Source: Escherichia coli
Lineage (GTDB): Bacteria; Pseudomonadota; Gammaproteobacteria; Enterobacterales; Enterobacteriaceae
Assembly (NCBI RefSeq): GCF_050920415.1
Contig: NZ_CP169309.1
Strand: one strand, 5' to 3'
Length of the DNA: 64,000 nt
Both the position numbers and the translations under genes were made by a program. A model generated the notes under the pieces. The model ran no database searches. It saw nothing but the letters and a program-made list of their open reading frames with translations, and had not been told where the DNA came from. Positions 4,246 to 27,088 of the stretch are shown piece after piece (the stretch's first letter is position 1; each line of letters starts with the position of its first letter).

Positions 4246-4260
4246 TATGTATACCTCTCG

Positions 4261-11983: not shown

Positions 11984-12454
11984 TTATTTTTTGCGTAAGC
12001 ACTGCGTTTTGATATAGCTCTGAAGTCCGGTGATCTTCGCGTCTTTCTCTTTTAGTTGTTCTCTGAGGGATAGATAAGCCGATTCAGCGTCGGGAGTGAG
12101 TCTACAGGTGGCTCCATCAATGCGGCTGGCGGTTCCGGTATTGTCGAGTAATCGCACTGGCTCGGCGTTGACGTGCAACCGGATAGTACCGCTATCAATG
12201 CCTGCACGCAGATCGGCAATGTCAGATCTGATAGCTTTAATTTCATCGTGATACCTCTTATCAAGTTTTGACAGTTCGGCGTTTCGCTCCTTCATCTGCT
12301 GAATAGTGTTACTTGCTGTTTTTAGTGCGCCTTGCGTCACCGTGACTTCTTCCTGTAACCTTGCCGCCTCACCGTGGTAATAACATGTAACGGCAGCTAG
12401 CCCGGCAATAATGCAAACAACAACGGCGATGATTAACGCCTTTACCTTGTCCAT
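11984..12454 (-). CDS. i-spanin (Rz-like)
   Basis: 156 aa; N-terminal TM anchor, coiled-coil periplasmic domain; overlaps the endolysin 3' end; embedded Rz1 frame. Confidence 0.6.
12052..12246 (-). CDS. o-spanin (Rz1-like lipoprotein) embedded in the Rz frame
   Basis: Alternate frame inside Rz; signal peptide with LSGC lipobox; proline-rich mature part. Confidence 0.5.
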   Translation of the reverse strand: MKLKLSDLTLPICVQALIAVLSGCTSTPSQCDYSTIPEPPAALMEPPVDSLPTLNRLIYPSENN

Positions 12455-12933
12455 GTTTCACCCCATTCGCAAACGGCATATTCAACATCACGGCGATTGA
12501 TTAAACCTTGCCACTGCTTACCGCCAGCATAGATCCAGCGTTTAAGCTGTGCGCACGCTTCTGATTTCTTGCCGTCATTGAGTAGCTTCAATAAGGTTGA
12601 TGTTTTGAAATTGGTTGCGCCTACGTTATAGGCGAATGAATAAAGCGCCGCGCGGGTAAAATCTGATATTTCGACTTTAATATACGGGTCAATCGCTTTT
12701 GCGGTCTTGTGGAGATCTTTGTTTAACAAAGCATCGCATTCTGATTGCGTGTAAGTCTTACCAAGCATGATGTCTTTTCCGGTGTGACCATAGCAAACAG
12801 TCCATACACCGATAACATCACGATACGGATCGTACTCCACGCCTTCTAATGGTTTAACCATCACAGCCGCAATAGCGATCGCCCCACCAGCCGCCGCAGC
12901 AATAATCTTATTCTTCAGCGATTGGCTAATCAT
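12442..12933 (-). CDS. SAR endolysin (T4-lysozyme-like, phage 21 R-type)
   Basis: N-terminal Gly/Ala-rich SAR helix [17 protein letters not shown] then [18 protein letters not shown] catalytic region; start at MISQSL, 1 nt after the holin stop. Confidence 0.7.
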
Positions 12934-12934
12934 G

Positions 12935-13135
12935 TTACTTATTCCCCATTCGCGCGTCGTGTTCCTCTTGCGCTCGTTTGTTCTCCTGTGATTTGAAGTA
13001 ATAATTAACGGCAAATGTGCCTATGGTTGATAAGATACCCACAAATACAGCAACATCATTAATGGTTATCGCACCAAAAAAGGCCGTTACGGCCCCTACT
13101 GCATACGCGCACACCTCCCGTATTTTGTCGAACAT
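12935..13135 (-). CDS. pinholin-type holin (S21-like)
   Basis: 66 aa, two hydrophobic helices, charged C-terminus [15 protein letters not shown] resembling S21; GGAGG SD. Confidence 0.6.
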
Positions 13136-13153
13136 AGATTTACCTCCAACAAA

Positions 13154-13177
13154 GCAAAAACCCGGCGCGGGGCCGGG
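13154..13177 (-). terminator. rho-independent terminator just upstream of the holin (tR'-like)
   Basis: Minus strand CCCGGCCCCGCGCCGGG hairpin followed by TTTTT, about 20 nt before the holin RBS. Confidence 0.5.
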
Positions 13178-13413
13178 TAATTACAATTTCGCATTGTTAG
13201 GAAATATTTTAATCTATTTGTTTTTTATGCGCGATTATGGCTACAGTTTCTTAATTAATAGCCCATTATCAAGTAATAATTGCATTTGCTCGCGGCTCAT
13301 TAGTGAATCTTTCCAGTATGGGTCATCAATAGTCATAATCATCACTTTGTCGCCTTTTAGCATGTAGGCTATACCGAACAAAGTATGTGAATAAACACCA
13401 TCTTCGATCTCAT

Positions 13414-13596
13414 TCATAGTCCGCTAACCCTTACCACATCGCCGTTATAAAGCATGATTTCAATCATTGCTCGCGTCATCTCGATGAATGGCTTCCTCCA
13501 GTCACCACCATCAATACAGACACGAATATCATCACCTTCCACGCGGTAAAACATCTCGTCGATTAGTGTTACGGCGTATATACCATCTTCAATCAT
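13414..13596 (-). CDS. hypothetical protein, paralog of the adjacent gene
   Basis: 60 aa; shares a YR(V/L)EG...PF(I/L)(E/T)MT...I(I/E)(A/I)M core with the next ORF. Confidence 0.4.
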   Translation of the reverse strand: MIEDGIYAVTLIDEMFYRVEGDDIRVCIDGGDWRKPFIEMTRAMIEIMLYNGDVVRVSGL

Positions 13597-13866
13597 TTAA
13601 CTATCCTCTTTGAATAGCCTAAATTTAATATCGCCAATCTTGCGCCAGTATCCGTGATTAAACATCGCGATGATCTCCGCAGATGTCATAGTTAAAAACG
13701 GTTCATGCCACGGCTCAAGCTGGTGTAATCGCATCATTACGTGTTCACCTTCAAGGCGATAATAAGCGCGTGACGCCAATGACTGATAAACACCGTCATA
13801 TTTATGGTCGCTATTTCCCATTTTTACGCCCCTTAATGGCTCTTTTGATCTGCGTGCGCGTGGCAT
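13597..13866 (-). CDS. hypothetical protein, paralog of the adjacent gene
   Basis: 89-aa ORF, start uncertain; tandem duplicate of 13414-13596. Confidence 0.35.
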   Translation of the reverse strand: MPRARRSKEPLRGVKMGNSDHKYDGVYQSLASRAYYRLEGEHVMMRLHQLEPWHEPFLTMTSAEIIAMFNHGYWRKIGDIKFRLFKEDS

Positions 13867-14011
13867 CGACGAAAGCGATAAACACCGCTACAGGCCAGAA
13901 AGGAATCTCAAGGCCACCACGATCGAGATCATTAGATTTGATAAAACAATACATCAGGATAGCGCCAGCGATATAAAGGAGAAACACAGCAATGATAAGA
14001 CATTCAATCAT
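13811..14011 (-). CDS. small membrane protein
   Basis: 66 aa, two hydrophobic helices; GAGG SD; start overlaps the upstream ORF. Confidence 0.4.
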   Translation of the reverse strand: MIECLIIAVFLLYIAGAILMYCFIKSNDLDRGGLEIPFWPVAVFIAFVDATRTQIKRAIKGRKNGK

Positions 14012-14144
14012 CCTCTTTCTCCCCGCCTAAATATTGATATATTTCTTCAGCATTTTCCCCGCGCTCAAAACAATAATGTTCAAACATGCGCCAGTGTTCA
14101 CTAAGAAACATAACAATAAAATTGTTAACGTATTCGTCATCCAT
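14004..14144 (-). CDS. hypothetical small protein (46 aa, not in the ORF track)
   Basis: ATG 14144 with AGAGGA SD; fills the gap between flanking genes. Confidence 0.35.
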   Translation of the reverse strand: MDDEYVNNFIVMFLSEHWRMFEHYCFERGENAEEIYQYLGGEKEDD

Positions 14145-14146
14145 AG

Positions 14147-14398
14147 TTAATCATCCTCTTCATCGTCTTCTTGTTCAGCCAGGAAATCATCGACGGCACG
14201 GTAAGTGACTGGCGGGACGTATTCGAAATCATCACTATCAAGATCGAGCGTCCGGCTGTCGCCGTCGTCGTCCATCGTGTTCATCCCCAGCTCACCGAAA
14301 GGACCGTATCCAATGTGGCCCAGGTATTCGCAACCAGTCGTAAAGCCAGGGTATTCACCTTTACAACGGATTTTGTAAGGTTTATTTGATGCGCTCAA
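14147..14398 (-). CDS. highly acidic small protein (candidate DNA-mimic / anti-restriction)
   Basis: 83 aa with Asp/Glu-rich stretches (DDDGD, DLDSDD, EQEDDEEDD). Confidence 0.4.
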   Translation of the reverse strand: MSASNKPYKIRCKGEYPGFTTGCEYLGHIGYGPFGELGMNTMDDDGDSRTLDLDSDDFEYVPPVTYRAVDDFLAEQEDDEEDD

Positions 14399-14705
14399 TT
14401 TTTGAGTCTCCGTCTTCTGTCGGGGTTATTTTGTATTCTGCCGCCAGTTCTGCACCAACCAATTCAACCTCGATTTCAGGGAAAGGATTAAGCATCAGTG
14501 CGGCAAAAACAAAATGTTTAACGTGATTTGCATATTCAAGGTGTTTCACGTCAAAAGGTGGTTCCGATACGTGGAAGCATTTAACGTGCGCGTCGTCTTC
14601 AGTAGCTACACGGAAACATACGCCAGGTTGCCCGGCGAATTTGCCATTTTTTTCATCTTCTGAAATAGTGCCACGGAAAACTTTAACGCTGATAAATTTA
14701 GACAT
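14382..14705 (-). CDS. hypothetical protein
   Basis: 107-aa ORF in the co-directional array. Confidence 0.35.
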   Translation of the reverse strand: MSKFISVKVFRGTISEDEKNGKFAGQPGVCFRVATEDDAHVKCFHVSEPPFDVKHLEYANHVKHFVFAALMLNPFPEIEVELVGAELAAEYKITPTEDGDSKIERIK

Positions 14706-14708
14706 TGT

Positions 14709-14963
14709 TTATTCTCCTTCGTAAAAAACAGCTACCAGTTCAGGATTGTTTAATGGGTTGGAGCAAGAATAAAAACCACTTCGCAATAATCCTCTAAGCG
14801 CCTTTATTTTTCTGTGCGCCGGGATTGACTCGCTTAAATAGAAATCATCTTTCCTTTTGTCATAAGGTAGCTCGTAAAACCTACCATAATTGACGAATTG
14901 AACGACGCGGCTGTACTCACCATCAATCCTACTAACGCCGCGCCAAATCCTAAATACAACCAT
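14709..14963 (-). CDS. hypothetical protein
   Basis: 84-aa ORF, 3-nt gap to the downstream gene. Confidence 0.35.
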   Translation of the reverse strand: MVVFRIWRGVSRIDGEYSRVVQFVNYGRFYELPYDKRKDDFYLSESIPAHRKIKALRGLLRSGFYSCSNPLNNPELVAVFYEGE

Positions 14964-14965
14964 AA

Positions 14966-15265
14966 TTAAAACTCCGCACCAGGTAAGCTACGCGCTTCGT
15001 TAATATCGTCCTTTTCAATCCATTTCTTAGCGTGTATATCCATTACGGATATAGCGGCAACTGGCGCATAGTTATTTACTGAGTTGATGTGAAACAATTG
15101 GTTTTTGGTAAAAATCATGTCGTCGTCTGTTATATATAACCAGTCGCCGCGCTTACCAACAACAGTATGAGATCTTCCTAAGCTGTCTTTAAATTCATAA
15201 TTGCAGAAAACATCATCATTAGGCACTTCAACAAAACAGCACGCAATGAATTTAGCACTTTTCAT
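14966..15265 (-). CDS. hypothetical protein
   Basis: Start at MKSAKF with a GAAGGGTG SD; the longer table ORF would run through an intergenic hairpin. Confidence 0.35.
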   Translation of the reverse strand: MKSAKFIACCFVEVPNDDVFCNYEFKDSLGRSHTVVGKRGDWLYITDDDMIFTKNQLFHINSVNNYAPVAAISVMDIHAKKWIEKDDINEARSLPGAEF

Positions 15266-15308
15266 AATTACACCCTTCTGGTTTGATGGGGCCATCCGGC
15301 CCCGTGTT

Positions 15309-15449
15309 TTATTCTTCTTCGTCTCCTTTGAATCCTAAACACTCCGCGTATTCGTCAATGCTTAATGCTTCTTCCCCTGGTGCCAGTAATTCAAAATAGC
15401 GGGCGTATAACTCAAAAACCCAGGCCGGATATTTAGCGTTAGCGTTCAT
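15309..15449 (-). CDS. hypothetical small protein (46 aa, not in the ORF track)
   Basis: ATG 15449 preceded by an AAGGGGGTG SD. Confidence 0.35.
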   Translation of the reverse strand: MNANAKYPAWVFELYARYFELLAPGEEALSIDEYAECLGFKGDEEE

Positions 15450-15460
15450 GGTTCACCCCC

Positions 15461-15733
15461 TTAAGCCATGCGTGCGAATTCAAGCGCTTTGCATTCATAG
15501 TCTTCTTCTGCCTGTTCCACTACACGGATAATCATCTGATCGGCGTTTTCGAAGCCATAACCTTTAGCGAATTCATTAGCACCGCCTTCGTGGTCATGTT
15601 CTGCGTTCATCGCTTCCACATAGTGGAACTCAAGATTGTTAAGGTAGGGACTAGAAACGCCGTCCTCTTTTTCAATCAGATCCCAAATTGCATTGAATCG
15701 GGACTCTGTTTCTTCGTTAATCCAGCGTTTCAT
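15461..15733 (-). CDS. hypothetical acidic protein
   Basis: 90 aa; GGAGGG SD; preceded by a 108-bp intergenic region with an inverted repeat and a G13 tract. Confidence 0.4.
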   Translation of the reverse strand: MKRWINEETESRFNAIWDLIEKEDGVSSPYLNNLEFHYVEAMNAEHDHEGGANEFAKGYGFENADQMIIRVVEQAEEDYECKALEFARMA

Positions 15734-15774
15734 TTTTCTGCCCTCCGCATCGTTCTCTCTTCAGCTTCTTTATA

Positions 15775-15808
15775 ACAAAATGGCACTGCCGAAACAATGC
15801 CATTTTGT
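15775..15808. promoter_or_regulatory. inverted repeat ACAAAATGGCA-N12-TGCCATTTTGT (operator/promoter-like)
   Basis: Perfect 11-bp arms at 15775-15785 and 15798-15808; overlaps a TGTTATAAA extended -10-like element on the minus strand. Confidence 0.4.
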
Positions 15809-15815
15809 AAACTTT

Positions 15816-15828
15816 GGGGGGGGGGGGG
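15816..15828. repeat. homopolymeric G13 (C13 on the coding strand) tract
   Basis: 13 consecutive G at 15816-15828 in an intergenic region directly next to the inverted repeat. Confidence 0.9.
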
Positions 15829-15841
15829 TAGATCACGCTTT

Positions 15842-16057
15842 TTATTCGTCCTGCTTGAAGGCCACTACAACCGCGCGATCTTTGTTCTGAATCAACCACC
15901 AGCCACGCGCCTTGCTTGGCGCTGCATACCATAAGTGACCGTAAGTGTCTGTGACAACTAAAAACGGGTTTTTCTGTAATCCGCCTGGCTTTTCCGCTTC
16001 GTACTGGCAACCGTCCTCAAAACAATCAAGATCAGATCCGTGACACGTTAAAATCAT
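15842..16057 (-). CDS. hypothetical protein
   Basis: 71-aa ORF. Confidence 0.35.
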   Translation of the reverse strand: MILTCHGSDLDCFEDGCQYEAEKPGGLQKNPFLVVTDTYGHLWYAAPSKARGWWLIQNKDRAVVVAFKQDE

Positions 16058-16066
16058 ATTGCCCCC

Positions 16067-16279
16067 TTAATAACGCTCAAAACTGGCGGAAAAATCAATG
16101 CCTGATATCTCACCGCCACGATAAGTTGGCATAAATCCCCACACATCATCATGATCATCAATCAATACAAGCGCCACGCCAACATCGCTAATCCCATTGC
16201 CATAAACAATGTGAACATCATAAATACGCCCAGGAGTGAAAACGCTGTCATTACTTGAGTATGTGCATTTAACTTGCAT
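16067..16279 (-). CDS. hypothetical protein
   Basis: 70-aa ORF. Confidence 0.35.
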   Translation of the reverse strand: MQVKCTYSSNDSVFTPGRIYDVHIVYGNGISDVGVALVLIDDHDDVWGFMPTYRGGEISGIDFSASFERY

Positions 16280-16553
16280 TATCAGCCACCTTTAAATAAT
16301 TTTTTACATCAACATCAGCCGGATATCTGGAAAATTGCGCTAACCATTGTCCGGTAATGTTTTTCACCAGTGCATAATCAAGATCGCCGCAGTAGAATAC
16401 CTGGTACATTGCCCCTTCGTTATCACTCATAACGAATACCATCTGGTCAGTAGTCGCATTGCGCAATCTGTGAATTGTGTACGCCTGCCCCGTGGTAAAT
16501 TTATATTCGTTACAAGTTGTGCGGCAAAACATCCGGTCAAAATAGCTTTCCAT
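16269..16553 (-). CDS. hypothetical protein
   Basis: 94-aa ORF overlapping its neighbours. Confidence 0.35.
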   Translation of the reverse strand: MESYFDRMFCRTTCNEYKFTTGQAYTIHRLRNATTDQMVFVMSDNEGAMYQVFYCGDLDYALVKNITGQWLAQFSRYPADVDVKNYLKVADNAS

Positions 16554-16798
16554 CAGAAAACCCCTTTATAATCGACCGTGTATTTTGCTATCAGGTTCCA
16601 GTCGCAATAATTAAGCATGTCTCGCGGTTGCCAGCCTTTCATCCCGACCGCCCGCCGCGCAGCGTGACGGCGATAATCATCGTTATAGTCAGCTATGCAC
16701 CACGGCTGGAGAACAAACATATAATTTGCTTCATTAACCAGGATAGCCACCCGCTTTCCTGTTGCCTTGTCTTTTGCCCTGAAATAATTCACTTTCAT
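16553..16798 (-). CDS. hypothetical protein
   Basis: 81-aa ORF, ATGA-type overlap. Confidence 0.35.
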   Translation of the reverse strand: MKVNYFRAKDKATGKRVAILVNEANYMFVLQPWCIADYNDDYRRHAARRAVGMKGWQPRDMLNYCDWNLIAKYTVDYKGVF

Positions 16799-17010
16799 TT
16801 TAATACCTCGTCGATCAACATTTCTTCTTCCAGGTTAGCCGGACGTTTACGGAATATCCCGGCAAAAACCAGATCGTCGAGTAGGTCTTTACGCTTAAAT
16901 AACCACTCTTTCATTATTACCCCGTCATCGCTGCGATATACGACGCCGTTTTTCAGAAAATAAAAAGTGCGGGTATTTGTCTGAAGGTATAAATCTTCGT
17001 AAACGTCCAT
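16795..17010 (-). CDS. hypothetical protein
   Basis: 71-aa ORF. Confidence 0.35.
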   Translation of the reverse strand: MDVYEDLYLQTNTRTFYFLKNGVVYRSDDGVIMKEWLFKRKDLLDDLVFAGIFRKRPANLEEEMLIDEVLK

Positions 17011-17014
17011 GATA

Positions 17015-17242
17015 TTAACCCTCGACTATTTGCAGACCGCGCCCCTTGTCACCCACGAAGTCACCAAGACTGAACGTATACGACCACGCCGGATTGATAT
17101 AATGGTCATCAGCACCAGCGGCAATGAGATCAGCACCATTAATCATGCAAGTAACATCATCGCTATGAACTACATTAACTACCTTACCAACAACCTGTTT
17201 TAATGACGGGTATCCGTGATCGTGCAAGAATTTAACTTTCAT
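17015..17242 (-). CDS. hypothetical protein
   Basis: 75-aa ORF. Confidence 0.35.
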   Translation of the reverse strand: MKVKFLHDHGYPSLKQVVGKVVNVVHSDDVTCMINGADLIAAGADDHYINPAWSYTFSLGDFVGDKGRGLQIVEG

Positions 17243-17472
17243 TCCACTGTCTCCCAGCGGTCAATGCTGATTAAAAAATCCCGGATAGCGTGGCGTTCGT
17301 CGCGCGTTGGCTTGCGCTTCCGGTAAATCTTGAAATCGAACCATTCTTTTTCTTGTTCGAAATCCAGATCGTAAGCAAGCGCCTCAATATATCCGCATTC
17401 GTGATACTGGTACGCCACGCCAGCACGAACAAAAAAGCGGGTTTTATCCCGCTTGTGTTCATAAATACGCAT
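17239..17472 (-). CDS. hypothetical protein
   Basis: 77-aa ORF. Confidence 0.35.
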   Translation of the reverse strand: MRIYEHKRDKTRFFVRAGVAYQYHECGYIEALAYDLDFEQEKEWFDFKIYRKRKPTRDERHAIRDFLISIDRWETVE

Positions 17473-17482
17473 ATTTACCCCG

Positions 17483-17713
17483 TTATGCAGTTGTGTAGCT
17501 GTCTACCAGCTTTTCATCCTTCATTCTGGCAAGCTGTGCGATGTTCATCGTGTAGCCGCCATCAGAGAAAAGCCACTCCGCCGCCTTGCGACGAAAAGTA
17601 ATATCATCATGGTTGCGCGTCCATGTGGCGATCACCACGCGCTTTCCGTCAGTGGCAAACATAGATAATTCATTATCAACTACGTCGATAGCCTGCCAGA
17701 TTTTTAGCTCCAT
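17483..17713 (-). CDS. hypothetical protein
   Basis: 76-aa ORF. Confidence 0.35.
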   Translation of the reverse strand: MELKIWQAIDVVDNELSMFATDGKRVVIATWTRNHDDITFRRKAAEWLFSDGGYTMNIAQLARMKDEKLVDSYTTA

Positions 17714-18069
17714 GATTTATCCCCGTAAATTTTGAATAATTCCCGTGCTTCCTGATCTTCGAATAACTTCATATGCAGATCATGCAGGCGTCGCATTGTG
17801 CGGAAGCGTGGTCTGAATTCTTGACCCCTTTTAATGTATTTATCGCCAATTGAATAAATATGACCGTATGAATACCATCTATTACCGACCCAAATTAGAT
17901 AAATTTCACCCTCATAATTAAATTTGATTGTAAGCTCGTCAACCTCCATTATTAATCCTTTATCGAGTATATCATTTAGCATATCATCCCATTCTTTGAG
18001 GAATGGTTGTTGATAAAAACCGAAAAGAGTATTTACAGCGTGGCAAAGGTAATCAAGGATTATTTGCAT
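17704..18069 (-). CDS. hypothetical protein
   Basis: 121-aa ORF. Confidence 0.35.
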   Translation of the reverse strand: MQIILDYLCHAVNTLFGFYQQPFLKEWDDMLNDILDKGLIMEVDELTIKFNYEGEIYLIWVGNRWYSYGHIYSIGDKYIKRGQEFRPRFRTMRRLHDLHMKLFEDQEARELFKIYGDKSWS

Positions 18070-18073
18070 ATTA

Positions 18074-18289
18074 TCACCACATCATATAATAAACGTTATC
18101 GTTAGCTACTTCGTCGGCTTGTTCTTGTGTTAATAGCGGTGCGCTTTCCATAAAAGCATCAGAGTAATGCCACTCATAAACAAGCATACGCGCCCATTTG
18201 CGGCGCTGGCGCTTATTGTGTCGCAGATCATCAAAAGCCTTTAACGCTTTGTCATACGCCCTTACCAGGCGTTTACGGTTACTTTTCAT
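18074..18289 (-). CDS. hypothetical protein
   Basis: 71-aa ORF. Confidence 0.35.
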   Translation of the reverse strand: MKSNRKRLVRAYDKALKAFDDLRHNKRQRRKWARMLVYEWHYSDAFMESAPLLTQEQADEVANDNVYYMMW

Positions 18290-18299
18290 TTATTACACC

Positions 18300-18635
18300 T
18301 TAAAATCTGTATTGCCAGTAAATATCACACTTTATTGCGAATACCTTCACAGGATCAGGGCCGAATAGTGGATGTTGAATCGACTTGATTTCGTACCCCA
18401 TATAAGGCAATACGATAATCCGGTCTTTCTCATCATCAGATGGATAACCCCATTTAATGATTAATCTTGTGTACTCCCGCCCCTCAAGGCGTTTGCGCCA
18501 ATAGTCATTATAAAGCCGGTATTCCTCCACCTTCTTTCCAGCCCTGATAGCGTGGAAGTATTCTCCTTTTAAATTCAAATGCAGGTGCTTACTTGCCATT
18601 GCTATGATCCTGTAAACAGTCGTTATAGCCTTCAA
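18300..18635 (-). CDS. hypothetical protein (possible ASCH/PUA-like fold)
   Basis: 111-aa ORF; start uncertain; fold assignment is a weak impression only. Confidence 0.3.
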   Translation of the reverse strand: MKAITTVYRIIAMASKHLHLNLKGEYFHAIRAGKKVEEYRLYNDYWRKRLEGREYTRLIIKWGYPSDDEKDRIIVLPYMGYEIKSIQHPLFGPDPVKVFAIKCDIYWQYRF

Positions 18636-18870
18636 TGTATCCGGTTAATCCGGTGTTACTCACTGACCATTCAGCCGTCCGGCGCTTGATGGCTTCGTCC
18701 ATCGTGATTTCGCCACCTGGCCCGCCTGGCTCAATATATTTTTTTAAATCTCTTGCTATCCACGCCCTTAATTGTTGTGTATCACGGCACAACCTCGCGG
18801 ATAATGTCAGGTCATTAACCAGCTTTGCAAATAGATGTTCTTTTAATTTAGGCTTCATCATCGTCACCAC
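18589..18870 (-). CDS. hypothetical protein
   Basis: 93-aa ORF, start uncertain. Confidence 0.3.
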   Translation of the reverse strand: MVTMMKPKLKEHLFAKLVNDLTLSARLCRDTQQLRAWIARDLKKYIEPGGPGGEITMDEAIKRRTAEWSVSNTGLTGYIEGYNDCLQDHSNGK

Positions 18871-19048
18871 GCTTGTAAATTTTCACAGGCTTAATAGGGA
18901 TGGCGGGTAATTCACCTTCATTTAACGCGCTTGCCATACCCAATATTAAACGCGCTTCAGCACCAGTGACTTTTTTGCACCATGCGCCGCCTGTTTTATC
19001 TTCGAATAAGATAACGGCAAACTGATCGTTTATTTCCAGCTTATCCAT
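18848..19048 (-). CDS. hypothetical protein
   Basis: 66-aa ORF whose ATG overlaps the Q-like stop codon (TAATG). Confidence 0.35.
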   Translation of the reverse strand: MDKLEINDQFAVILFEDKTGGAWCKKVTGAEARLILGMASALNEGELPAIPIKPVKIYKRGDDDEA

Positions 19049-19770
19049 TATTCACCCCGTGTTACTCGTTTAATCTCACTTTCCGCGCGGGCCTCTTCTT
19101 TGAATAGCTCAGCTATGGCGTCTTCATAGAAAACCCGGTATTTTTTCCACCATGTTGATCGGCTTACCGGAAAGACAAGCTGGTTAACCGCCTGCCGGAC
19201 AAGATCTACCGGGAAACGCGAGTACCCGCGCCCGCCGCAGTGTTGGCACGTTTTGAATACTGGCATTTCCGCCGCTTCGCTGGCTGCTTTATCCGGTATC
19301 TCGCCGCGACCTTTGCATTGTTTACAATGATTGCGAACCTTTCCATGCCCCTTGCATTTTTTGCAAAGGTGTTTTTCTCCGTAGTCGTCAAACGTAAATT
19401 TATATCCGCCGCACTCCATACAAGTTTTTTCCGTCGCGGCGCTTTGGCAATAATCCCGAAACGCGAAAACGGCAACAAGAATAATAAGATCATTGCGTTG
19501 TTCTTCATTTAATTCCATCACGTATTCGTAATCTTTCGCCATAGCTCTTAAACGCTCTGTAAGTAATACTACGGCCCTGTGTTTTTCGGCTTGCGATAGT
19601 TCCATCTTCCCTAAAAAAGCGCTATATCCAAGCTCTACGCGCGATTGCGCCATACCAGCGGCGGTAAGCGCATCCGTCGTATTAAGTGCATCAGGTGATG
19701 TTCCCCGGCTTTCGTCTGATAATCGCGGTGATTTTGGGAAGTGGAATTTAAGAATGGATTCTAAATTCAT
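19048..19770 (-). CDS. antitermination protein Q-like
   Basis: 240 aa, cysteine-rich zinc-binding region (CMECGG...CKKCKGHGK...CKQCKGRG...CQHCGGRG), position after ninG/rusA as in lambdoid phages. Confidence 0.55.
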   Translation of the reverse strand: MNLESILKFHFPKSPRLSDESRGTSPDALNTTDALTAAGMAQSRVELGYSAFLGKMELSQAEKHRAVVLLTERLRAMAKDYEYVMELNEEQRNDLIILVAVFAFRDYCQSAATEKTCMECGGYKFTFDDYGEKHLCKKCKGHGKVRNHCKQCKGRGEIPDKAASEAAEMPVFKTCQHCGGRGYSRFPVDLVRQAVNQLVFPVSRSTWWKKYRVFYEDAIAELFKEEARAESEIKRVTRGE

Positions 19771-19952
19771 TATTTGCCCTCATAACGTGCCGCCAGCCGT
19801 TTACGATCAGAAATGGATTGCACCAGCTTTCTTTCAAACTCTTTCAGCGCAAGTAATTCGCGCATGTGGAAAGCCTGGATTTGTCTGACCGTCTCTAAAT
19901 CACGCTCGTCGCGCTGAATATCTATTTGCAGATCTTTAACTTCGTTTTTCAT
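19770..19952 (-). CDS. small hypothetical protein
   Basis: 60 aa, charged helical; coupled between rusA and the Q-like gene. Confidence 0.35.
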   Translation of the reverse strand: MKNEVKDLQIDIQRDERDLETVRQIQAFHMRELLALKEFERKLVQSISDRKRLAARYEGK

Positions 19953-20356
19953 TGCTCACCCCACATATTCGTCGCGTATTCGTCAATATCCGGTAGCAGG
20001 TCGCCGCGTTCGCGTACCTTGATAAACAATCGCCCGCCTTTTACCTTCCGGCAGCGTACAATTTTTATTGAGTCGATTTGTCCGTCGTCAGTCCAGAATC
20101 CGGCGTAAGTAAGGCTATCAAAAAGGCATTTGGGGATATTATCCAGATCTCTGATCCGGTTATCCGGCGGCGCGGCATAAATGGCGATTGCCAGTCGGCA
20201 AGATAGGTTAATGTCTAAATTTAATAATTCGATGATGTCTTTTACTTGCTCCCGGTATTCCTTCCCCACTTTGCTGATATAGTGAAAACCGCGCGAATGT
20301 CGGTAATAGCGGTTATTCGATGGCGGGTAAGGCAGGCTAAAAGTATATTCATTCAT
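19949..20356 (-). CDS. rusA: Holliday junction resolvase RusA
   Basis: 135 aa; N-terminal LPYPPSNNRYYRH and downstream RDLDN match the RusA family. Confidence 0.75.
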   Translation of the reverse strand: MNEYTFSLPYPPSNNRYYRHSRGFHYISKVGKEYREQVKDIIELLNLDINLSCRLAIAIYAAPPDNRIRDLDNIPKCLFDSLTYAGFWTDDGQIDSIKIVRCRKVKGGRLFIKVRERGDLLPDIDEYATNMWGEQ

Positions 20357-20958
20357 GCCGCCTTTCTCCTTAAGGCGTCCAATTTTGCCTGATAGATGTT
20401 TATTAGCTCCTTACATTCTGCGATCGTCCATTTGTGCGTATCGTTGTTGTTCTCCAGTGCTACCACCCTGGCGAGGCCAATTTTTCGAATCAGCGCCGGG
20501 CGATACCCTCCGATGTTGCCGTCTAGTGTCTGGTTGCAGTGCCTGCATTGCTTGTGACAATTATCCTCGTTGAAGCGAAGGTGTCCGGCGGCGGCTACCG
20601 TCCTGTAATGGCCTGCATCCCACCCGCATTGCTCACCGTAGTAAGTCCCGCATGATATGCACGGCAATCGCGCGTCACGCTCGCGTATATAAGCGTTAAA
20701 AACGTTTTGCGCCTGTTTAATCCAGTAGCTACGCGGATTTAACTGCTTCCGCTTCCGGTTGCGTTCTTCCCGCTGGCTATCACGGCGTTTCTTCCGTTCC
20801 ATAGCCTTCATAGCCTTCTCACGGTCGCGGCATAGCTGATCAAACTTCAGTTCTTCCAGACATTCATCGCTGCACCACGTTTGATTGTGATATTTAGGCT
20901 CAAAAAAAACGCCGCAGCATTTGCAACGGCGTCTTATGGGTTTTTTAGGGTTCTGCAT
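20353..20958 (-). CDS. ninG: NinG (Rap) recombination protein
   Basis: RSYWIKQAQ...AYIRERD...PCISCG...WDAGHYRT...LRFNE...HKQC closely matches lambda NinG; start at MQNPKK with a GGGGTGG SD. Confidence 0.75.
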   Translation of the reverse strand: MQNPKKPIRRRCKCCGVFFEPKYHNQTWCSDECLEELKFDQLCRDREKAMKAMERKKRRDSQREERNRKRKQLNPRSYWIKQAQNVFNAYIRERDARLPCISCGTYYGEQCGWDAGHYRTVAAAGHLRFNEDNCHKQCRHCNQTLDGNIGGYRPALIRKIGLARVVALENNNDTHKWTIAECKELINIYQAKLDALRRKAA

Positions 20959-20972
20959 AAAAACCACCCCTA

Positions 20973-21149
20973 TTATTTTTGATTCTCTGTTTCGTTCAGC
21001 CTTTCGGCGTGTCCGGCCCTTAGCCGATGATCTAAGCATTCGTTGCACTCGTTACGGCCTCCTTTCTTCGTGCTGCATACATTGCACATTGCACGCATGA
21101 CGCTCTCTCGTTCATAGTCGTCATGCCATTGGTAATCATCAAAAGACAT
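20973..21149 (-). CDS. ninF: NinF-like small zinc-ribbon protein (58 aa, absent from the ORF track)
   Basis: AAGGAGAG SD; ESV(M/E)RA..C..C motifs and length equal to lambda NinF; directly upstream of ninG. Confidence 0.5.
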   Translation of the reverse strand: MSFDDYQWHDDYERESVMRAMCNVCSTKKGGRNECNECLDHRLRAGHAERLNETENQK

Positions 21150-21270
21150 AATGCTCTCTCCTTTTCAGGTGATTTCTACGCATTTCAGCGCTGCCGGATT
21201 TTTAAAGAGCATTTCGTTTGCTTGAAGTATACAAAATGGATGCACCTGAACAAGGCAAAAAGCGCCATTA

Positions 21271-21286
21271 TGTGACCAAAATCACA
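21271..21286. promoter_or_regulatory. CRP-like palindrome TGTGA-N6-TCACA
   Basis: TGTGACCAAAATCACA in the intergenic region upstream of ninF, 8 bp from a GCCATTTTGTAAACTTT element. Confidence 0.4.
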
Positions 21287-21308
21287 CAATGACGCCATTT
21301 TGTAAACT

Positions 21309-22067
21309 TTAGTCCGGTAAAACGCGGTTAAGCGTAGTCCGCGTGATGGCCCGGTCGTTAGCCAGGAATACAGCACGGGCGAAGCCGCGCGGCGTTAGTG
21401 ACCGGATCATCTTTGTTCGCTTTGCCCGGCCTCCGGTTTTCGCCCACCCAGGGTTATCACCAGAGTTAAGATCTACAGGTCTAAAAATCGGCTGTTTAAA
21501 TCCGTTGCCGCACCAGATGCAAGTTTTCTTCGTGTACGCGTCGCGCGCCGGGTAAACATCCGGGAAAGCAGGATGCTTGTCATCTTCCGGCAGATAGCCA
21601 CCGTAAGCGCACGGATTGAAGATAAAATCTGGTTTACGCCATAACGTTGACAGTGCTCCTACCGGATTTTCCACCATCCACGGGACGTTATACATGTCAG
21701 CCAGTGTTTCGACCAGTTTCGCGTTATATGCCGCCTTCACCTGGAAGTCAGGATCTTTTTCACGCTTGCTGGAGAACCAACGAGCGCCGGACACGGCGAG
21801 ATCGTCGCATGGTGGGAAGGCAAAAATAATGTCAGGATCTGGATAAACAGACAATTCAGGGGAGAATATTACCAGGAAATGGCTATCAATCCAGACATTG
21901 ACATATTCAATATTGGGATGAATTACTTTTACTCCGTCATAATCCCCGTGATTAGCGCCGTCATAGTTGAAGCAATAGCACTTATATCCAGCTTCAGCCC
22001 AATCTTTAACGGCGTACCCGCTGCCATCGTAAAGCGACCATACCACCCAATTTTTAAGACTGCTCAT
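21309..22067 (-). CDS. DNA cytosine-5 methyltransferase-like protein (compact, PCD variant)
   Basis: 252 aa with motif I-like LYDGSG, motif IV-like FPPCDDLAVSG (D where C5-MTases have Q), motif VI-like ENPVG. Confidence 0.45.
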   Translation of the reverse strand: MSSLKNWVVWSLYDGSGYAVKDWAEAGYKCYCFNYDGANHGDYDGVKVIHPNIEYVNVWIDSHFLVIFSPELSVYPDPDIIFAFPPCDDLAVSGARWFSSKREKDPDFQVKAAYNAKLVETLADMYNVPWMVENPVGALSTLWRKPDFIFNPCAYGGYLPEDDKHPAFPDVYPARDAYTKKTCIWCGNGFKQPIFRPVDLNSGDNPGWAKTGGRAKRTKMIRSLTPRGFARAVFLANDRAITRTTLNRVLPD

Positions 22068-22573
22068 CTTCTACCCTCAAACGTAAAATAGCGGCGCATG
22101 ATGATAGTAATCACCGTTACCGCTGCCATTTTTGAGATGAATTGCATAGCTGATATTTCAGGCATGAATGCCATAAACGATAGCGTAGGAAAAATTAACG
22201 CATCGCCAATGGCGGACGCTATATTTGCAGGCCAGCGTTTTGAATCGAAATCACCAGGTAAAACCCGGTAAACGCCGCCAGAAATAAGCGCACCGGAAAC
22301 AACCGCGACGAATGACGCGATCGCCACCATCCCGGCGTCGTAATTTATCAGCACCGTGATTGCGCCAGCGGCGGCGCATGTTGTAGCCGACCATTTCAGG
22401 CCGCCGTCATATAACAAGAAGTCACGAATCATCATATTGACGCACACAGCGGCTACCGTGGTGATCGGAATTACCCACGGGCCGCAATGGTTAACAATAA
22501 GATTAATGATCACGAAAACGGCGACATAAACGCAGGCTAATAACCTGTCAATTGTCACCTTTTCCATTTGGAT
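22064..22573 (-). CDS. integral membrane protein (4-5 predicted TM helices)
   Basis: Hydrophobic ORF between the two methyltransferase-like genes; start uncertain. Confidence 0.4.
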   Translation of the reverse strand: MQMEKVTIDRLLACVYVAVFVIINLIVNHCGPWVIPITTVAAVCVNMMIRDFLLYDGGLKWSATTCAAAGAITVLINYDAGMVAIASFVAVVSGALISGGVYRVLPGDFDSKRWPANIASAIGDALIFPTLSFMAFMPEISAMQFISKMAAVTVITIIMRRYFTFEGRR

Positions 22574-23060
22574 CATACCTCTTATCGCGAATAGCTTCTG
22601 ATCTATCAAACTTCACATTAAGCCGATTAGTGGCCTCACCGTTAAACATCACAGTATGGATTGTTTTTCCTGGAATAAGCGACGGATCCGGCCCTGATAA
22701 ATCATCGTAAAGTTTTATCCCTCCGCCAATTGGGAGATCAAAAACAGCTTGTTTCTTCCTTTGTTCTTCCTCACGCTCCGTTAATATTTGTTCAGCTTTT
22801 AGTGCGCTGTAGCTAATCAAATCGATTAACGTATCAGTAGGGTCGCTTCCATTGCTTAAAATGGCCTCTAATCGCGCTTCCTTAAGGCAAATCATTAGAT
22901 CCCATACATCAAGCGGGGTTAAATCTGCTCCCTTCTTAGCGTTGTAAATAGCGGCTATTTTTGGCGCTGATTTTTCCTCTTTTTTGTCGTAGCCGTTTTG
23001 TTTGCCTCTTTGCTCTATTGTTTCCGCTGCAAGTCTTAACAAGTCTGTTGCCTTAGTCAT
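22548..23060 (-). CDS. hypothetical protein
   Basis: Start at MTKATDLL with an AGAGGTG SD; about 170 aa. Confidence 0.35.
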   Translation of the reverse strand: MTKATDLLRLAAETIEQRGKQNGYDKKEEKSAPKIAAIYNAKKGADLTPLDVWDLMICLKEARLEAILSNGSDPTDTLIDLISYSALKAEQILTEREEEQRKKQAVFDLPIGGGIKLYDDLSGPDPSLIPGKTIHTVMFNGEATNRLNVKFDRSEAIRDKRYDPNGKGDN

Positions 23061-23592
23061 TATTCGCACCTCTTGCATATAGCTCTTTACGTGTTATCTG
23101 CGTGAAAATACATTCATGTCTGCACCGTGGATGCCAGATTAAAAACAAGCTCCCCTTATTATTCCCGCTCGCTGGCTTACCAGTAGCGGCATTAATAAAC
23201 GCCAGCCGCCCGCGCGTAATTAATCGGCATTCGTTTGCCGTCTCCACGCCGTTCATAAACCAGCCAACAGAAATGTCGGCTGGCAATAACATTACGCATC
23301 CGATATGGTTTCGGTTGTGTTCAAGCGCCGCTTTATCAACGAATGGCCCCGGATTAGAATATGGTGGATTAAGCCAGACATACTCACCAGGCATTGCCAC
23401 CGCTCCCCACGGATAATGCAACGTGTCCATTTCTTCGGTTATATATCGCGGAACTAATGCGTTTGCTTTGTTTGCCGCCACGTCCGCGACGAATTCGAAT
23501 TCCCGATCCATTCCTCTAAAAACTGGTTTTGGCGTTTGCCATAAGTCTTTTATTTCTTTCGGCGTATGGCTGCCGCCGTAATCATTTTTCAT
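23053..23592 (-). CDS. DNA N6-adenine methyltransferase (phage Dam-like orphan MTase)
   Basis: 179 aa with the catalytic NPPY motif (WLNPPYS) and Dam-family size. Confidence 0.6.
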   Translation of the reverse strand: MKNDYGGSHTPKEIKDLWQTPKPVFRGMDREFEFVADVAANKANALVPRYITEEMDTLHYPWGAVAMPGEYVWLNPPYSNPGPFVDKAALEHNRNHIGCVMLLPADISVGWFMNGVETANECRLITRGRLAFINAATGKPASGNNKGSLFLIWHPRCRHECIFTQITRKELYARGANND

Positions 23593-23601
23593 TACGCCCC
23601 C

Positions 23602-23835
23602 TTAGAAATAATCCTGATCTGTTCCCCAGCGGTTATTCAGATACCCCACCAACCACACAAAACGCTCAATACTGATTAGCGGGGCGACCTTGCGATAATG
23701 CTTGTCGAGTATCAGCCGCGTGGCTTTATCGCTGTAGCCGTTCTTTTCTACCTCCGCTTTGCAGGCCGAAAGCGCGGCGCGTGCGGCAGTCTTTACGGCG
23801 TTAAATTGCGGCTCAGACATATTAAATAAAGCCAT
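23602..23835 (-). CDS. hypothetical protein
   Basis: ORF in the array; start codon uncertain. Confidence 0.3.
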   Translation of the reverse strand: MALFNMSEPQFNAVKTAARAALSACKAEVEKNGYSDKATRLILDKHYRKVAPLISIERFVWLVGYLNNRWGTDQDYF

Positions 23836-23839
23836 AGGA

Positions 23840-24091
23840 TCACCATGTATCATCCCAATCCGGCGCGGCAGTCCAGCAAAAACCAATGAATGCGCTCACA
23901 GCCAATAAAGCGCGGGCTGCAAAAAGAATATTCCCAATGTCGTTAAATTCAGGCAGCGACCACGTAATAAACATAGCCCCAAGCATGACAACACCGATAA
24001 CAGTCAGGGCCGCAAGGAAAACAAAAAGCGTAGCCAAAAGCCACGCCCCCAACCAGTTAAAAAAGCTCTTAAGCATTTTAAACGTCCTCAA
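23840..24091 (-). CDS. small membrane protein
   Basis: 83 aa, two to three hydrophobic helices. Confidence 0.4.
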   Translation of the reverse strand: MRTFKMLKSFFNWLGAWLLATLFVFLAALTVIGVVMLGAMFITWSLPEFNDIGNILFAARALLAVSAFIGFCWTAAPDWDDTW

Positions 24092-24281
24092 TTACCCCGC
24101 CTTTCACGCGTTCTTTAATATCCCATACGTGAGGCTTGCATATTTCTTGATAATAGCGATCCGGCCTGCTGCCGAAATACCATTTACCATCCATATAAAA
24201 ATAAACGCCAGAAAAATTACCAGGTGCGGCCTTTGTTGCTGATTCTGGAATTTTCCATTCTCTGTAATTTTTAAATCGCAT
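24078..24281 (-). CDS. hypothetical protein, paralog of the adjacent gene
   Basis: 67 aa; G(N/G)FSG(V/C)Y(F/Y)Y motif shared with 24271-24465. Confidence 0.35.
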   Translation of the reverse strand: MRFKNYREWKIPESATKAAPGNFSGVYFYMDGKWYFGSRPDRYYQEICKPHVWDIKERVKGGVIEDV

Positions 24282-24465
24282 GTAATGACACCTCCCTGAT
24301 AAGTTTGCTTAACTCAATGTTTATTAATCTGCGGAAATGTTGCTTTCCATCAGCAAAGTGCACCAAGTAAATATCACCAACAATGTTATAGTAGTAACAG
24401 CCGCTAAAACCAATTCCTGCCAATTTAGCGTTATCAGGCAACGTATAACCGCCAACATTTTTCAT
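24271..24465 (-). CDS. hypothetical protein, paralog of the adjacent gene
   Basis: 64 aa; GAGGTGA SD. Confidence 0.35.
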   Translation of the reverse strand: MKNVGGYTLPDNAKLAGIGFSGCYYYNIVGDIYLVHFADGKQHFRRLINIELSKLIREVSLHAI

Positions 24466-24468
24466 ATA

Positions 24469-24561
24469 TCACCTCATATGGTATTCAATAAACCACCTGA
24501 TAAACAGGCATAAGGCAATAAAACCCCAGCAACAGCACATATAAAACAATGTGTCGTCCAT
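24469..24561 (-). CDS. small hydrophobic peptide (30 aa, MDDTLFYMCCCWGFIALCLFIRWFIEYHMR)
   Basis: ATG 3 nt after the upstream stop; TGAGG SD; single TM helix; not in the ORF track. Confidence 0.35.
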   Translation of the reverse strand: MDDTLFYMCCCWGFIALCLFIRWFIEYHMR

Positions 24562-24563
24562 AA

Positions 24564-24782
24564 TTAAGCCTCAATAACACCGTAATCAAACGTGCCTAAA
24601 TACCGTTCGATACTTACAACCTCAATACCATCAATGCACCGTTTCCACACAGACACCTGGCTTTCATTTTCTCTGAAGTGCATATTAGAAAGCACTTCAT
24701 CGGCTGGATAGCCTTTCCCAGCGGCGTAGGCATCGTGACCTACGCCACCTTCTACGCAATAAAGCATGAATTCGCGTTCCAT
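24564..24782 (-). CDS. hypothetical protein
   Basis: 72 aa; GGAGG SD. Confidence 0.4.
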   Translation of the reverse strand: MEREFMLYCVEGGVGHDAYAAGKGYPADEVLSNMHFRENESQVSVWKRCIDGIEVVSIERYLGTFDYGVIEA

Positions 24783-24863
24783 TTTTGCTTCCTCCGCACC
24801 GTAAACCTTTTGATTTCGGATTACAAAACGGATATGCGATTACAATACATAATGTATATTCAT

Positions 24864-24879
24864 GTGATCGGAATCACTC
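24864..24879. promoter_or_regulatory. CRP-like palindrome TGTGA-N6-TCACT
   Basis: TGTGATCGGAATCACT in the intergenic region upstream of gene 24564-24782, flanked by an ATACAT-A-ATGTAT palindrome. Confidence 0.35.
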
Positions 24880-24881
24880 GG

Positions 24882-25501
24882 TTAATGCAGTACACGTTTT
24901 CCCTGTTCAGGCATCGGCTGTGCGTTTTTCCTTGCATCGTTAAGCGTAGCGATAGCTGCCTGTACTCCCAAAACACTAGCGCGCATATCATCGCCAACAA
25001 AATTACCGTAAAGCACAGGAATAAAAGCCTTAATGTTATCTTCTTCGTGTCCTTCCTCAATAAATTTCTGCAACATCTTAACTTCAAATATTTTTTCATC
25101 ATTCCGCGAATAGAATACAAAGAAGCGCTACCCATTCTGTTTTCATCAATAGGGAAGATAACAGCACTACCAAAAGCCATAGGATCAACATCTTCAGGCA
25201 CTGGAACGCGTCCGAATTCTTCCTCCATGCGTTTTACAAAAGAAAGGCAGAATACATAACGCGCCACCGTTGTTTTTTCTTCCAGGCTTAAAGACACGTA
25301 ATCGCGGATTGACGCATCCATCATAATATCAACAATATGTAGCGCCAGGTTTAAATCACCGTCATACACGCCAGCATCCATATCTTTTAATACTTCGTGA
25401 TAATCCTTAGTTACCACTTCGTGAAAGCTCGCGTCTTCTGTGTAGCGAGTGATTAACATGCCTTCGCTGCCGAGTGAATAAGCTGTTTTGATGTTGTTCA
25501 T
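24882..25501 (-). CDS. hypothetical protein with an apparent -1 frameshift at an A6 run (programmed shift or pseudogene)
   Basis: N-terminal ~135 aa in one frame; a protein-like C-terminal 64-aa ORF in the -1 frame ends just before the intergenic region; frames join near A6 at 25091-25096. Confidence 0.35.
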
Positions 25502-25514
25502 GATATTTATCCTT

Positions 25515-25847
25515 TTATAGTGGGTGATGCCATTTCATTTCTGTTTCTGAATTAAACGGGTTTCCTTCGCTTGAAAGGAATAAATCACGCTCCCGTTTCA
25601 GTTCTTCCGGGCTTATTTCTATTTCATCAATCTGACCGAACGATCCCGGCATCATTCTTTTTAAATCAGATAGCGGACGCATAAGGCCGCAACCGCGTAA
25701 CAGCATATCGACCGCGAATTGTCTACGTCCGGCGGCGTCATTAAAGCGCCGTGCCCAGGGCACAACCACGATCCGGCGTTCGAATTCGATAAATAGTGAT
25801 AGCTTGTTTGTTTCGCTATCATATGCTTTATGGAATTTAATTTTCAT
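25515..25847 (-). CDS. hypothetical protein
   Basis: 110-aa ORF. Confidence 0.35.
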   Translation of the reverse strand: MKIKFHKAYDSETNKLSLFIEFERRIVVVPWARRFNDAAGRRQFAVDMLLRGCGLMRPLSDLKRMMPGSFGQIDEIEISPEELKRERDLFLSSEGNPFNSETEMKWHHPL

Positions 25848-26410: not shown

Positions 26411-26418
26411 GATTAACC

Positions 26419-26780: not shown

Positions 26781-26793
26781 GATTAACACCTCA

Positions 26794-27072: not shown

Positions 27073-27088
27073 CGCTAACGCATTGATT

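Follow-up and report, generated by a model that had tools for sequence, protein, structure and literature searches.

The 64,000-nucleotide stretch of Escherichia coli contig NZ_CP169309.1 analysed here (the window) carries a prophage in which a short motif, nn(A/C)C-ATTYT-GTAWAC(TT), recurs over the early promoters and in the gaps between early genes. We consider this motif to be the operator of the prophage's lambda-CI-like repressor, encoded at 29089-29736, with a probability of roughly 0.7 on the sequence evidence presented below; the operator is probably also used by whatever lytic-phase antagonist shares the repressor sites. Two of the copies lie within an identical 17-mer, GCCATTTTGTAAACTTT, that is found at two distal positions, and these 17-mers would most likely be the promoter-distal operators of two internal leftward promoter-operator modules.

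The prophage shares about 87% identity with mEp021, mEp010, MagusPhagus and related phages, and is of the mEpimmI type (mEp021 group), which was recently described as a common group among human-gut coliphages (PMC11893012). In that description, cloned Rep021 conferred immunity by blocking infection, the N-like protein acted at three nut sites (nutL, nutR1, and nutR2), nutR2 was placed downstream of the cytosine methyltransferase, and no operators or early promoters were named for mEpimmI phages (PMC11893012). From its position downstream of the methyltransferase, nutR2 therefore falls within the intergenic region that holds the second 17-mer. The leftward gene block of the window prophage spans approximately 12000 to 28600 and contains, in order from the leftward early promoter pL, genes for an N-like antiterminator, erf, ssb, many small proteins, two methyltransferases, ninF, ninG, rusA, Q, and lysis functions; the rightward replication genes begin at 30042.

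Exact copies of GCCATTTTGTAAACTTT are located at 15799-15815 and 21294-21310 on the plus strand, as the initial annotation of this DNA had reported. The two copies are intergenic, as was also stated there, the second overlapping the methyltransferase stop codon by two bases. When up to three mismatches were allowed, seven matches to the 17-mer were found, compared with 0.33 expected, and none of 100 shuffles reached seven. The sequence CATTYTGTAWAC, which had been proposed as the wider motif, gave 11 matches with at most one mismatch, compared with 1.27 expected; these covered the previously listed copies at 28968, 28990, and 29811, and four further matches were located at 21227 (minus strand), 31769, 32906, and 36429 (minus strand). 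With the relaxed pattern [AC]CATT[TCA]TGT[AGT][AT], 18 matches were obtained against 1.6 expected, all of them in the prophage and none in the 26 kb of host DNA. By calculation, about 0.1-0.25 exact 17-mer pairs are expected in 64 kb. The exact pair alone is thus only weakly significant, and the motif family as a whole is not a product of chance. Between 15 and 18 of 27 relaxed matches were placed in the approximately 10% of the phage part that is non-coding, and the motif was the only sequence common to pL, the rightward early promoter pR, and the two distal regions.

The functional unit of the family appears to be a 13-bp quasi-palindrome, nn(A/C)C-N5-GTA(A/T), arranged as 4-5-4, rather than CATTYTGTAWAC itself. 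One half is strong and extended, reading GTAWACTT, and the spacer within the group is usually ATTYT. In a strict scan of the window for ATAC-N5-GTAT with at most one mismatch and an A/T-rich spacer, just 12 matches were found against 3.9 expected, so that the symmetric model has little predictive power in this phage; it is the asymmetric extended motif, rather than the symmetric palindrome, that stands out. A weight matrix built from eight copies scored those eight above 20 bits, followed by a single site at 4239 with 18.5 bits, and the remaining matches were at background level.

The sites around the repressor gene are arranged as follows.

28937-28965, minus strand: leftward early promoter pL, TTGACT-N17-TATATT, with 10/12 consensus matches
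28940-28999, plus strand: OL cluster, comprising the three sites OL1-OL3
28940-28952, plus strand: OL1, ATAC-GCCCC-GTAA, over the pL -10 and spacer
28965-28977, plus strand: OL2, ATCC-ATTTT-GTAT, touching the pL -35
28987-28999, plus strand: OL3, AAAC-ATTTT-GTAT
29089-29736, minus strand: repressor gene, 215 aa, with helix-turn-helix (HTH_3) and S24 peptidase (Peptidase_S24) domains, 97% identical to Rep021
29773-29785, minus strand: OR2, ATAC-ATTTT-GTGA, at an offset from the repressor start matching that of ACAC-AAAAT-GTAT in relatives
29796-29823, plus strand: rightward early promoter pR, TTGACC-N16-TAAACT
29808-29820, plus strand: OR1, CGCC-ATTCT-GTAA, over the pR spacer and -10 (29818-29823)

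The copy over pR described in the initial annotation does extend across the spacer and -10 of this promoter, and the two copies that it had placed upstream of the pL -35 are likewise present. OR1 overlaps the pR -10, and OL1 and OL2 overlap the pL -10 and -35, respectively. Several copies are about two helical turns apart, with centre-to-centre distances of 25 bp for OL1-OL2 and 22 bp for OL2-OL3, and of 25 and 24 bp for two pairs described below (D'-D and G1-G2); wider distances were found for OR1-OR2 (35 bp) and for the sites A-C (34 bp) and C-B (30 bp) near nutR2. Between pR and nutL (29737-30041), neither a cro-like gene nor an operator at the repressor-proximal (OR3) position was found; three sites and a cro gene of the HTH_3 type are present in relatives, among them one designated L098, whose repressor is 55% identical. 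A weak operator-like sequence, TTAC-GTTTT-GGTG, is located at 29036-29048 between OL3 and the repressor terminator.

The closest solved relative of the repressor is lambda CI (3bdn, E 3e-19). Its residues 1-17 (MKTKWYDLAKQLMRAQG; 29686-29736, minus strand) are conserved in homologues that are only 37-55% identical, and residues 1-215 were matched in all 44 of 44 related contigs. The GenBank annotation of mEp021 (L001, 24119-24715) starts the repressor at the internal Met18, giving 198 aa, and the cloned Rep021 apparently does likewise; a start at Met18 would delete the first helix of the DNA-binding domain.

What decides in favour of a link between the motif and the repressor is the set of homologues from outside this phage group. 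Nine further repressor contexts were recovered, including ones from Enterobacter, Citrobacter, Tatumella, Serratia, and Shewanella, the others coming from assemblies and viral contigs; their repressors are 37-55% identical to that of the window, eight of the nine falling between 37 and 50%, and the neighbouring cro, cII, and replication genes are different. When viral contigs were scanned by alignment for repressors of intermediate relatedness, no loci beyond those already found were revealed. All eight of the homologues that are 37-50% identical possess three 13-bp ATAC-N5-GTAT sites between the repressor and cro, at near-fixed offsets of about 17, 43, and 76 nt from the repressor start, and extra copies of the site downstream of rep. 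The cro-side site holds the -10 TATACT of a good promoter, for example in TTGATT-N16-TATACT. In the window, OR2 occupies the middle offset and OR1 the cro-side offset of this layout.

Furthermore, the strong half-site changed together with the recognition helix of the repressor. Helices of the form xTKGxxxHW were accompanied by GTATAC(T/C)T, those of the form xTQGGxGHW by GTATTA(T/A)T (two independent members), and VTPGGMGHW by GTACA, so that the strong half-site tracks recognition-helix residue 2 (K, Q or P) in this small sample. Because the site changes with the recognition helix, it behaves as an immunity operator would. The proposal in the initial annotation of an operator for a CI-type repressor is thus favoured by both the offsets and the covariation, with its definition of the site and the promoter role corrected.

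Conservation at equivalent positions, on which the initial annotation had made its proposal depend, was observed in mEp021, in nearly all of the 44 related viral contigs, and in L098. At three of the internal sites (E, H, and G2, listed below) the half-sites ATAC and GTAW are kept in relatives while the flanks vary, and the five-base spacer changes freely and even reverses (ATTCT, AAAAT, AAAAC, AATAT). G1 and G2 form conserved islands inside a variable intergenic region. L098 shares both the recognition helix and the genome layout of the window prophage; its copies comprise an OR trio, a pair spaced by 25 bp, a trio in the gap separating the methyltransferase-like gene from ninF, a single one ahead of the helicase gene, and others on the pL side and following the N-like gene, and 16 of its 25 relaxed matches lie in the approximately 10% of its DNA that is non-coding.

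Beyond pL and pR, at least 10 further copies were found in short intergenic gaps of both early operons. The second 17-mer belongs to a cluster at nutR2, as follows.

21294-21310, plus strand: second 17-mer, overlapping the methyltransferase stop codon and forming the 5' flank of the t4 hairpin; conserved in relatives
21293-21305, plus strand: operator B, CGCC-ATTTT-GTAA, in the region of the second 17-mer
21262-21296, minus strand: terminator t4, a 16-bp stem followed by UUUUUGCC, with a folding free energy (dG) of -25.9 kcal/mol and z of -5.0; called as a terminator
21263-21275, plus strand: operator-like site C, CGCC-ATTAT-GTGA, supplying an arm of the t4 hairpin; without variation among 36 distinct relatives
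21226-21253, minus strand: candidate promoter P_nutR2, read from the sequence, with -35 TTGTTC (21253-21248), a 16-nt spacer, and -10 TATACT (21231-21226)
21229-21241, minus strand: operator A, ATCC-ATTTT-GTAT, covering the P_nutR2 spacer and the first 3 nt of the -10; half-sites invariant in relatives
21199-21211, minus strand: nutR2 boxA, TGCTCTTTAAAAA, 14 nt downstream of the P_nutR2 -10

On the transcribed (minus) strand, the order is therefore the methyltransferase stop codon, B, t4 with C, P_nutR2 with A, boxA, and ninF. Operator A lies on P_nutR2 in exactly the register that OR1 has on pR, and the -35 of P_nutR2 is kept in relatives while the flanking bases vary. The counterpart of t4 is annotated as TERM_4 in mEp021. 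Since the nut site is situated directly after a terminator, transcription would be expected to start at P_nutR2, and the otherwise puzzling third nut site probably serves a separate repressor-controlled promoter just after the terminator. The top of the t4 hairpin is formed by a perfect CRP-consensus palindrome, TGTGA-ccaaaa-TCACA (21271-21286), which is only partly conserved in mEp021 (TGTGA-tccaca-TCACG); it was considered as a part of the motif and rejected, and is treated here as the hairpin top.

A similar arrangement was observed at the first 17-mer.

15799-15815, plus strand: first 17-mer, in the region of operator D; kept in five E. coli prophages while the neighbouring spacer varies
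15798-15810, plus strand: operator D, TGCC-ATTTT-GTAA, abutting the P157 -35
15769-15797, minus strand: candidate promoter P157, read from the sequence, with -35 TTGTTT (15797-15792), a 17-nt spacer, and TG-n-TATAAA (-10 at 15774-15769)
15773-15785, minus strand: operator D', TGCC-ATTTT-GTTA, in the P157 spacer and overlapping the -10 by 2 nt
15773-15810, minus strand: terminator-like D'/D hairpin with the U-rich tail AUUUUGUUAU, dG -21.3 kcal/mol, z -5.1
15461-15733, minus strand: 90-aa cargo gene downstream of P157, family phrog_7287

The layout of D and D' on P157 is that of OL2 and OL1 on pL, shifted by one base. In the five E. coli prophages, D, D', and the -35 (TTGTTY) are all kept, and the bases between them vary. 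D and D' form a hairpin because they are inverted relative to each other, and the equivalent hairpin in mEp010 is annotated as terminator T8. The 90-aa gene has approximately 79% DNA identity to a gene of rV5-like lytic coliphages belonging to the same family of unknown function; it is present in only some mEpimmI members and is therefore regarded as cargo that temperate and virulent phages have exchanged. Directly adjoining the first 17-mer, at 15816-15828, are 13 consecutive G (13 C on the transcribed strand). At this place, the sequences of the five related E. coli prophages and of two phages read GCGGGGG, GCGGAG or similar, and the run, which is unique to the window, is either a slippage-prone tract or a sequencing artefact.

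The following copies, none of which was included in the initial annotation, complete the set in the early operons; the copies that it did list were correct.

24821-24833, minus strand: G1, ATCC-GTTTT-GTAA, upstream of the 72-aa gene at 24564-24782
24845-24857, minus strand: G2, ATAC-ATTAT-GTAT, upstream of the same gene
28287-28299, plus strand: H, TTAC-ATTTT-GTAT, in the gap that separates the N-like gene's stop codon from the ribosome-binding site of the small gene following it
31766-31778, plus strand: E, ATAC-ATTCT-GTAA, directly 5' of the ribosome-binding site of a 372-aa exonuclease-like gene
32903-32915, plus strand: F, TTCC-ATTTT-GTAA, overlapping the upstream stop codon and 5' of the ribosome-binding site of a DnaB-like helicase gene

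In most relatives, TTGTGA-N16-TAAACT lies framed by G1 and G2 and constitutes a third module built like the other two; its -10 in the window has decayed to TAATCC. No promoter features were found at E, F, and H, each of which ends 2-4 nt ahead of the ribosome-binding site. A weak operator-like sequence, TACC-AGTCT-GTAA, was noted at 31643-31655, 123 bp upstream of E, in the gap after the initiator gene; this gap (31401-31796) contains no long open reading frame.

The distribution of about 15 sites through the early genes suggests that the repressor directly silences several internal promoters. In a lysogen, repressor dimers would occupy the sites, cooperatively where these are 22-25 bp apart, and would thereby close the internal promoters as well as pL and pR; E, F, and H, which are solitary sites, might, as a guess, serve as roadblocks or looping anchors. 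Upon induction, all of the units would fire together, and transcripts from the nutR2 promoter would load the N-like antiterminator at their own nut site. We put the chance that the internal promoters, such as the one ahead of ninF-ninG-rusA-Q, and the roadblocks work as proposed at somewhat below to slightly above even. The complete scheme is put forward more tentatively still, at somewhat less than even odds: a lambda-CI-type, SOS-cleavable repressor would act as a genome-wide silencer whose approximately 15 operators split the early operons into directly repressed units, among them a third early promoter that has a nut site to itself and drives Q, with roadblocks before the replication genes.

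Several observations weigh against the operator assignment or against the internal promoters. The left half-site is degenerate in this phage, with CC instead of AC in most copies; relatives show a clean ATAC-N5-GTAT, whereas in the window GTAW is strict on the right, with mostly nnCC on the left. The family model does not call for the conserved ATTYT spacer, and a second constraint may therefore act on the extended motif. The same covariation would be seen with a cognate Cro, and the sequence does not separate the repressor from a Cro-type binder. The candidate internal promoters are weak, with -35 elements matching 3/6 consensus positions and falling below the threshold of a consensus scan, and the region of L098 equivalent to nutR2 holds three sites, yet no clear -35 and no nut site. 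Both 17-mers lie within terminator hairpins, which could explain part of their conservation. Finally, the mEpimmI regions are so conserved that phylogenetic footprinting at pL, pR, and nutR2 has little power: among 29-36 distinct sequences, background identity was 0.90-0.94, compared with 0.89-1.0 within the sites, and informative footprints came only from regions with more variation.

The role of both 17-mers in terminator-like hairpins went unremarked in the initial annotation and provides the basis of a rival explanation, namely that they are conserved solely as parts (the A-tract and 5' arm, pairing with the U-tract) of intrinsic bidirectional terminators, their likeness to the copies in promoter regions reflecting A/T-tract composition or shared ancestry. 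Both copies do lie in strong hairpins on the transcribed strand, with the free energies given above and z of about -5; that at 21262-21296 was called as a terminator, the equivalents in mEp021 and mEp010 are annotated as such, and on the plus strand GCC|ATTTTGT can be read as the end of a stem followed by a U-tail. The structures holding the 17-mers thus have the features of terminators, the 17-mer itself supplying the upstream arm or A-tract and not the core of stem plus U-tract. However, no hairpin accompanies the same sequence at OL2, OL3, OR1, A, E, F, H, G1, and G2, the conserved GTAWAC(TT) falls outside the terminator stems, and the same sites recur at fixed offsets beside repressor homologues elsewhere. 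In the relatives, moreover, the loop and inner stem of D'-D vary, whereas the operator parts and the -35 are kept. As the sole explanation, the terminator reading is therefore unlikely; terminator and operator roles are compatible, and it is only as a sole explanation that it fails.

A promoter rather than an operator origin of the motif was also considered, in which it would represent the spacer and -10 (TG-TAAACT or TG-TATACT) of sigma-70 early promoters. The motif does provide the -10, with a -35 located 16 nt upstream, in the case of pR, of A, and, in most relatives, of G1, and the cro-side promoter of distant relatives has TATACT inside the site. This would not account for B, D, OL2, OL3, E, F, and H, which have no -35 at 16-18 nt in their own orientation, nor for E and F, where a transcript would begin inside the ribosome-binding site; conservation of the left half-site and the palindromic form in relatives are not properties of a promoter. 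B and D, moreover, face against the direction of the genes. The suggestion in the initial annotation that the 17-mers might be promoter elements fails on the same grounds, since neither has a -35 in its own orientation and both oppose the leftward genes, and we regard a promoter-only origin of the family as very improbable. Even less credence is given to a role of E, F, and H at the RNA level, where they would regulate translation of the downstream genes as small hairpins or as binding sites for a protein. Their close approach to the Shine-Dalgarno sequence, the similar downstream text GTAAAC-n-GAGG...ATG, and a palindrome able to form a stem of 3-4 bp are in line with it, but such stems are too weak to fold alone, the spacer that would form the loop changes freely, the copies of L098 upstream of an ANT-like gene have the opposite orientation, and the same sequence is present at untranscribed promoter positions.

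With respect to the binder, the candidates other than the repressor are a Cro-type regulator alone, the 84-aa winged-helix protein resembling an O-like N-terminal domain (30042-30296), and a host factor. The sequence does not by itself identify the protein, Cro uses the operators of the repressor in lambda-type switches, and the gene of the 84-aa protein, itself a DNA-binding domain, closely follows pR. Against these candidates, the site family accompanies the repressor homologues even where the replication module of the prophage is unrelated (primase-helicase, Rep_O, CP76) and changes with the repressor recognition helix; this phage lacks a cro-like gene between pR and nutL; and the origin has distinct iterons of its own, CCATGGCACAA, present four times at 30729-30783. 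To our knowledge, none of the consensus sites of IHF, Fis, DnaA, LexA, OmpR, and ArcA fits the motif. A binder other than the repressor is accordingly considered quite unlikely, a shade more so than the terminator explanation. The possibility that the motif itself represents origin iterons was rejected, the repeat inside the initiator gene being a different one and the motif being dispersed.

Some additional matches and features of the prophage deserve mention. At 4240-4252 (plus strand), a perfect ATAC-ATTAT-GTAT, identical to G2, spans both the start codon and the ribosome-binding site of the late-operon gene for the major capsid protein; this copy, the one scoring 18.5 bits, may be due to chance or may be a repressor site of the late region. 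The copies at 3120, 14507, 25132, 29722 (in the first codons of the repressor), and 57592 were set aside as probable chance matches or by-products of coding. Near the integrase end, two neighbouring copies of CTGT(G)TATAC (CTTTCTGTATACtgcctttttCTGTGTATACccc; 36429-36460, minus strand) resemble the strong half and do not fit the 13-mer; they may be arm sites for an integrase or excisionase. To the right of the integrase gene, positions 38100-41000 are E. coli chromosome (mppA, tyrR, tpx, ycjG, and mpaA) with up to 99.9% identity to some E. coli strains, and the prophage therefore occupies the mppA attachment site, one among those reported for the mEpimmI group. In the rightward operon, the first gene after pR and nutL (30042-30296, 84 aa) matches only the N-terminal DNA-binding part of O-like initiators, and the gene at 30300-31400 (366 aa) matches the remaining part; because the two products cover separate parts, the initiator looks split into two open reading frames. 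The four CCATGGCACAA-type repeats, spaced by 11 and 22 nt, are inside the 366-aa gene and look like origin iterons.

The analysis supplies a concrete candidate operator sequence and a map of about 15 sites for mEpimmI phages. If the assignment is correct, it would affect the prediction of immunity, induction timing, and cargo expression in prophages, and the operator sequences would be useful for engineering these phages.

The system resembles the OL/OR system of lambda in that the repressor shares its two-domain composition with CI, each site has imperfect symmetry and pairs a strong half with a weak one, the clusters are spaced 22-25 bp apart over the -10 and -35 of divergent early promoters, and N-type antitermination occurs at nut sites just downstream. 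It differs from lambda in the length of the site (13 bp, 4-5-4, as opposed to 17 bp), in the absence of OR3 and of an adjacent cro gene, in a third nut site with an apparent operator-controlled promoter of its own, and, most importantly, in the presence of at least 10 extra copies kilobases from the immunity region. In phage 186, CI has sites at pR, at the flanking FL and FR, and at pB of the late activator gene, and represses pB at a distance. The candidate promoter before ninF-Q would correspond to pB; the protein family and site architecture of 186 differ, and its promoter has no nut or antitermination element.

A dispersed arrangement is also known from the stoperators bound by gp71 of L5 in cluster A mycobacteriophages, where many sites likewise lie in early operons, mostly in short intergenic gaps, and exist alongside genuine operators at promoters (PMC9283540, PMC6550527). 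Such gaps hold many sites in both the window and L098. Each L5 stoperator is an asymmetric 13-mer to which an unrelated repressor of two domains binds as a monomer, and the orientation of these sites follows transcription and is required for function (PMC9283540, PMC6550527). In contrast, the site described here is quasi-palindromic, the repressor is a CI/LexA-like protein with HTH_3 and Peptidase_S24 domains rather than a monomeric gp71-type protein, and several copies lie on promoter-like sequences; B and D oppose the leftward genes, A, G1, and G2 run with them, and the spacer flips in relatives. In P1, one repressor, C1, controls many separate lytic promoters (ban, ssb, dmt, kilA, and ref), including that of a DnaB-type helicase gene (PMC4713147), and here site F fronts a DnaB-like helicase gene. 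C1 is from an unrelated family and has a 17-bp asymmetric operator (PMC4713147), and P1 is a plasmid prophage without N/Q antitermination. If our reading is correct, a dispersed network like those of P1 and the mycobacteriophages can be operated by a repressor of the lambda type, and the mEpimmI prophage would be a hybrid in which the lambda switch is combined with the strategy of stoperators or of P1.

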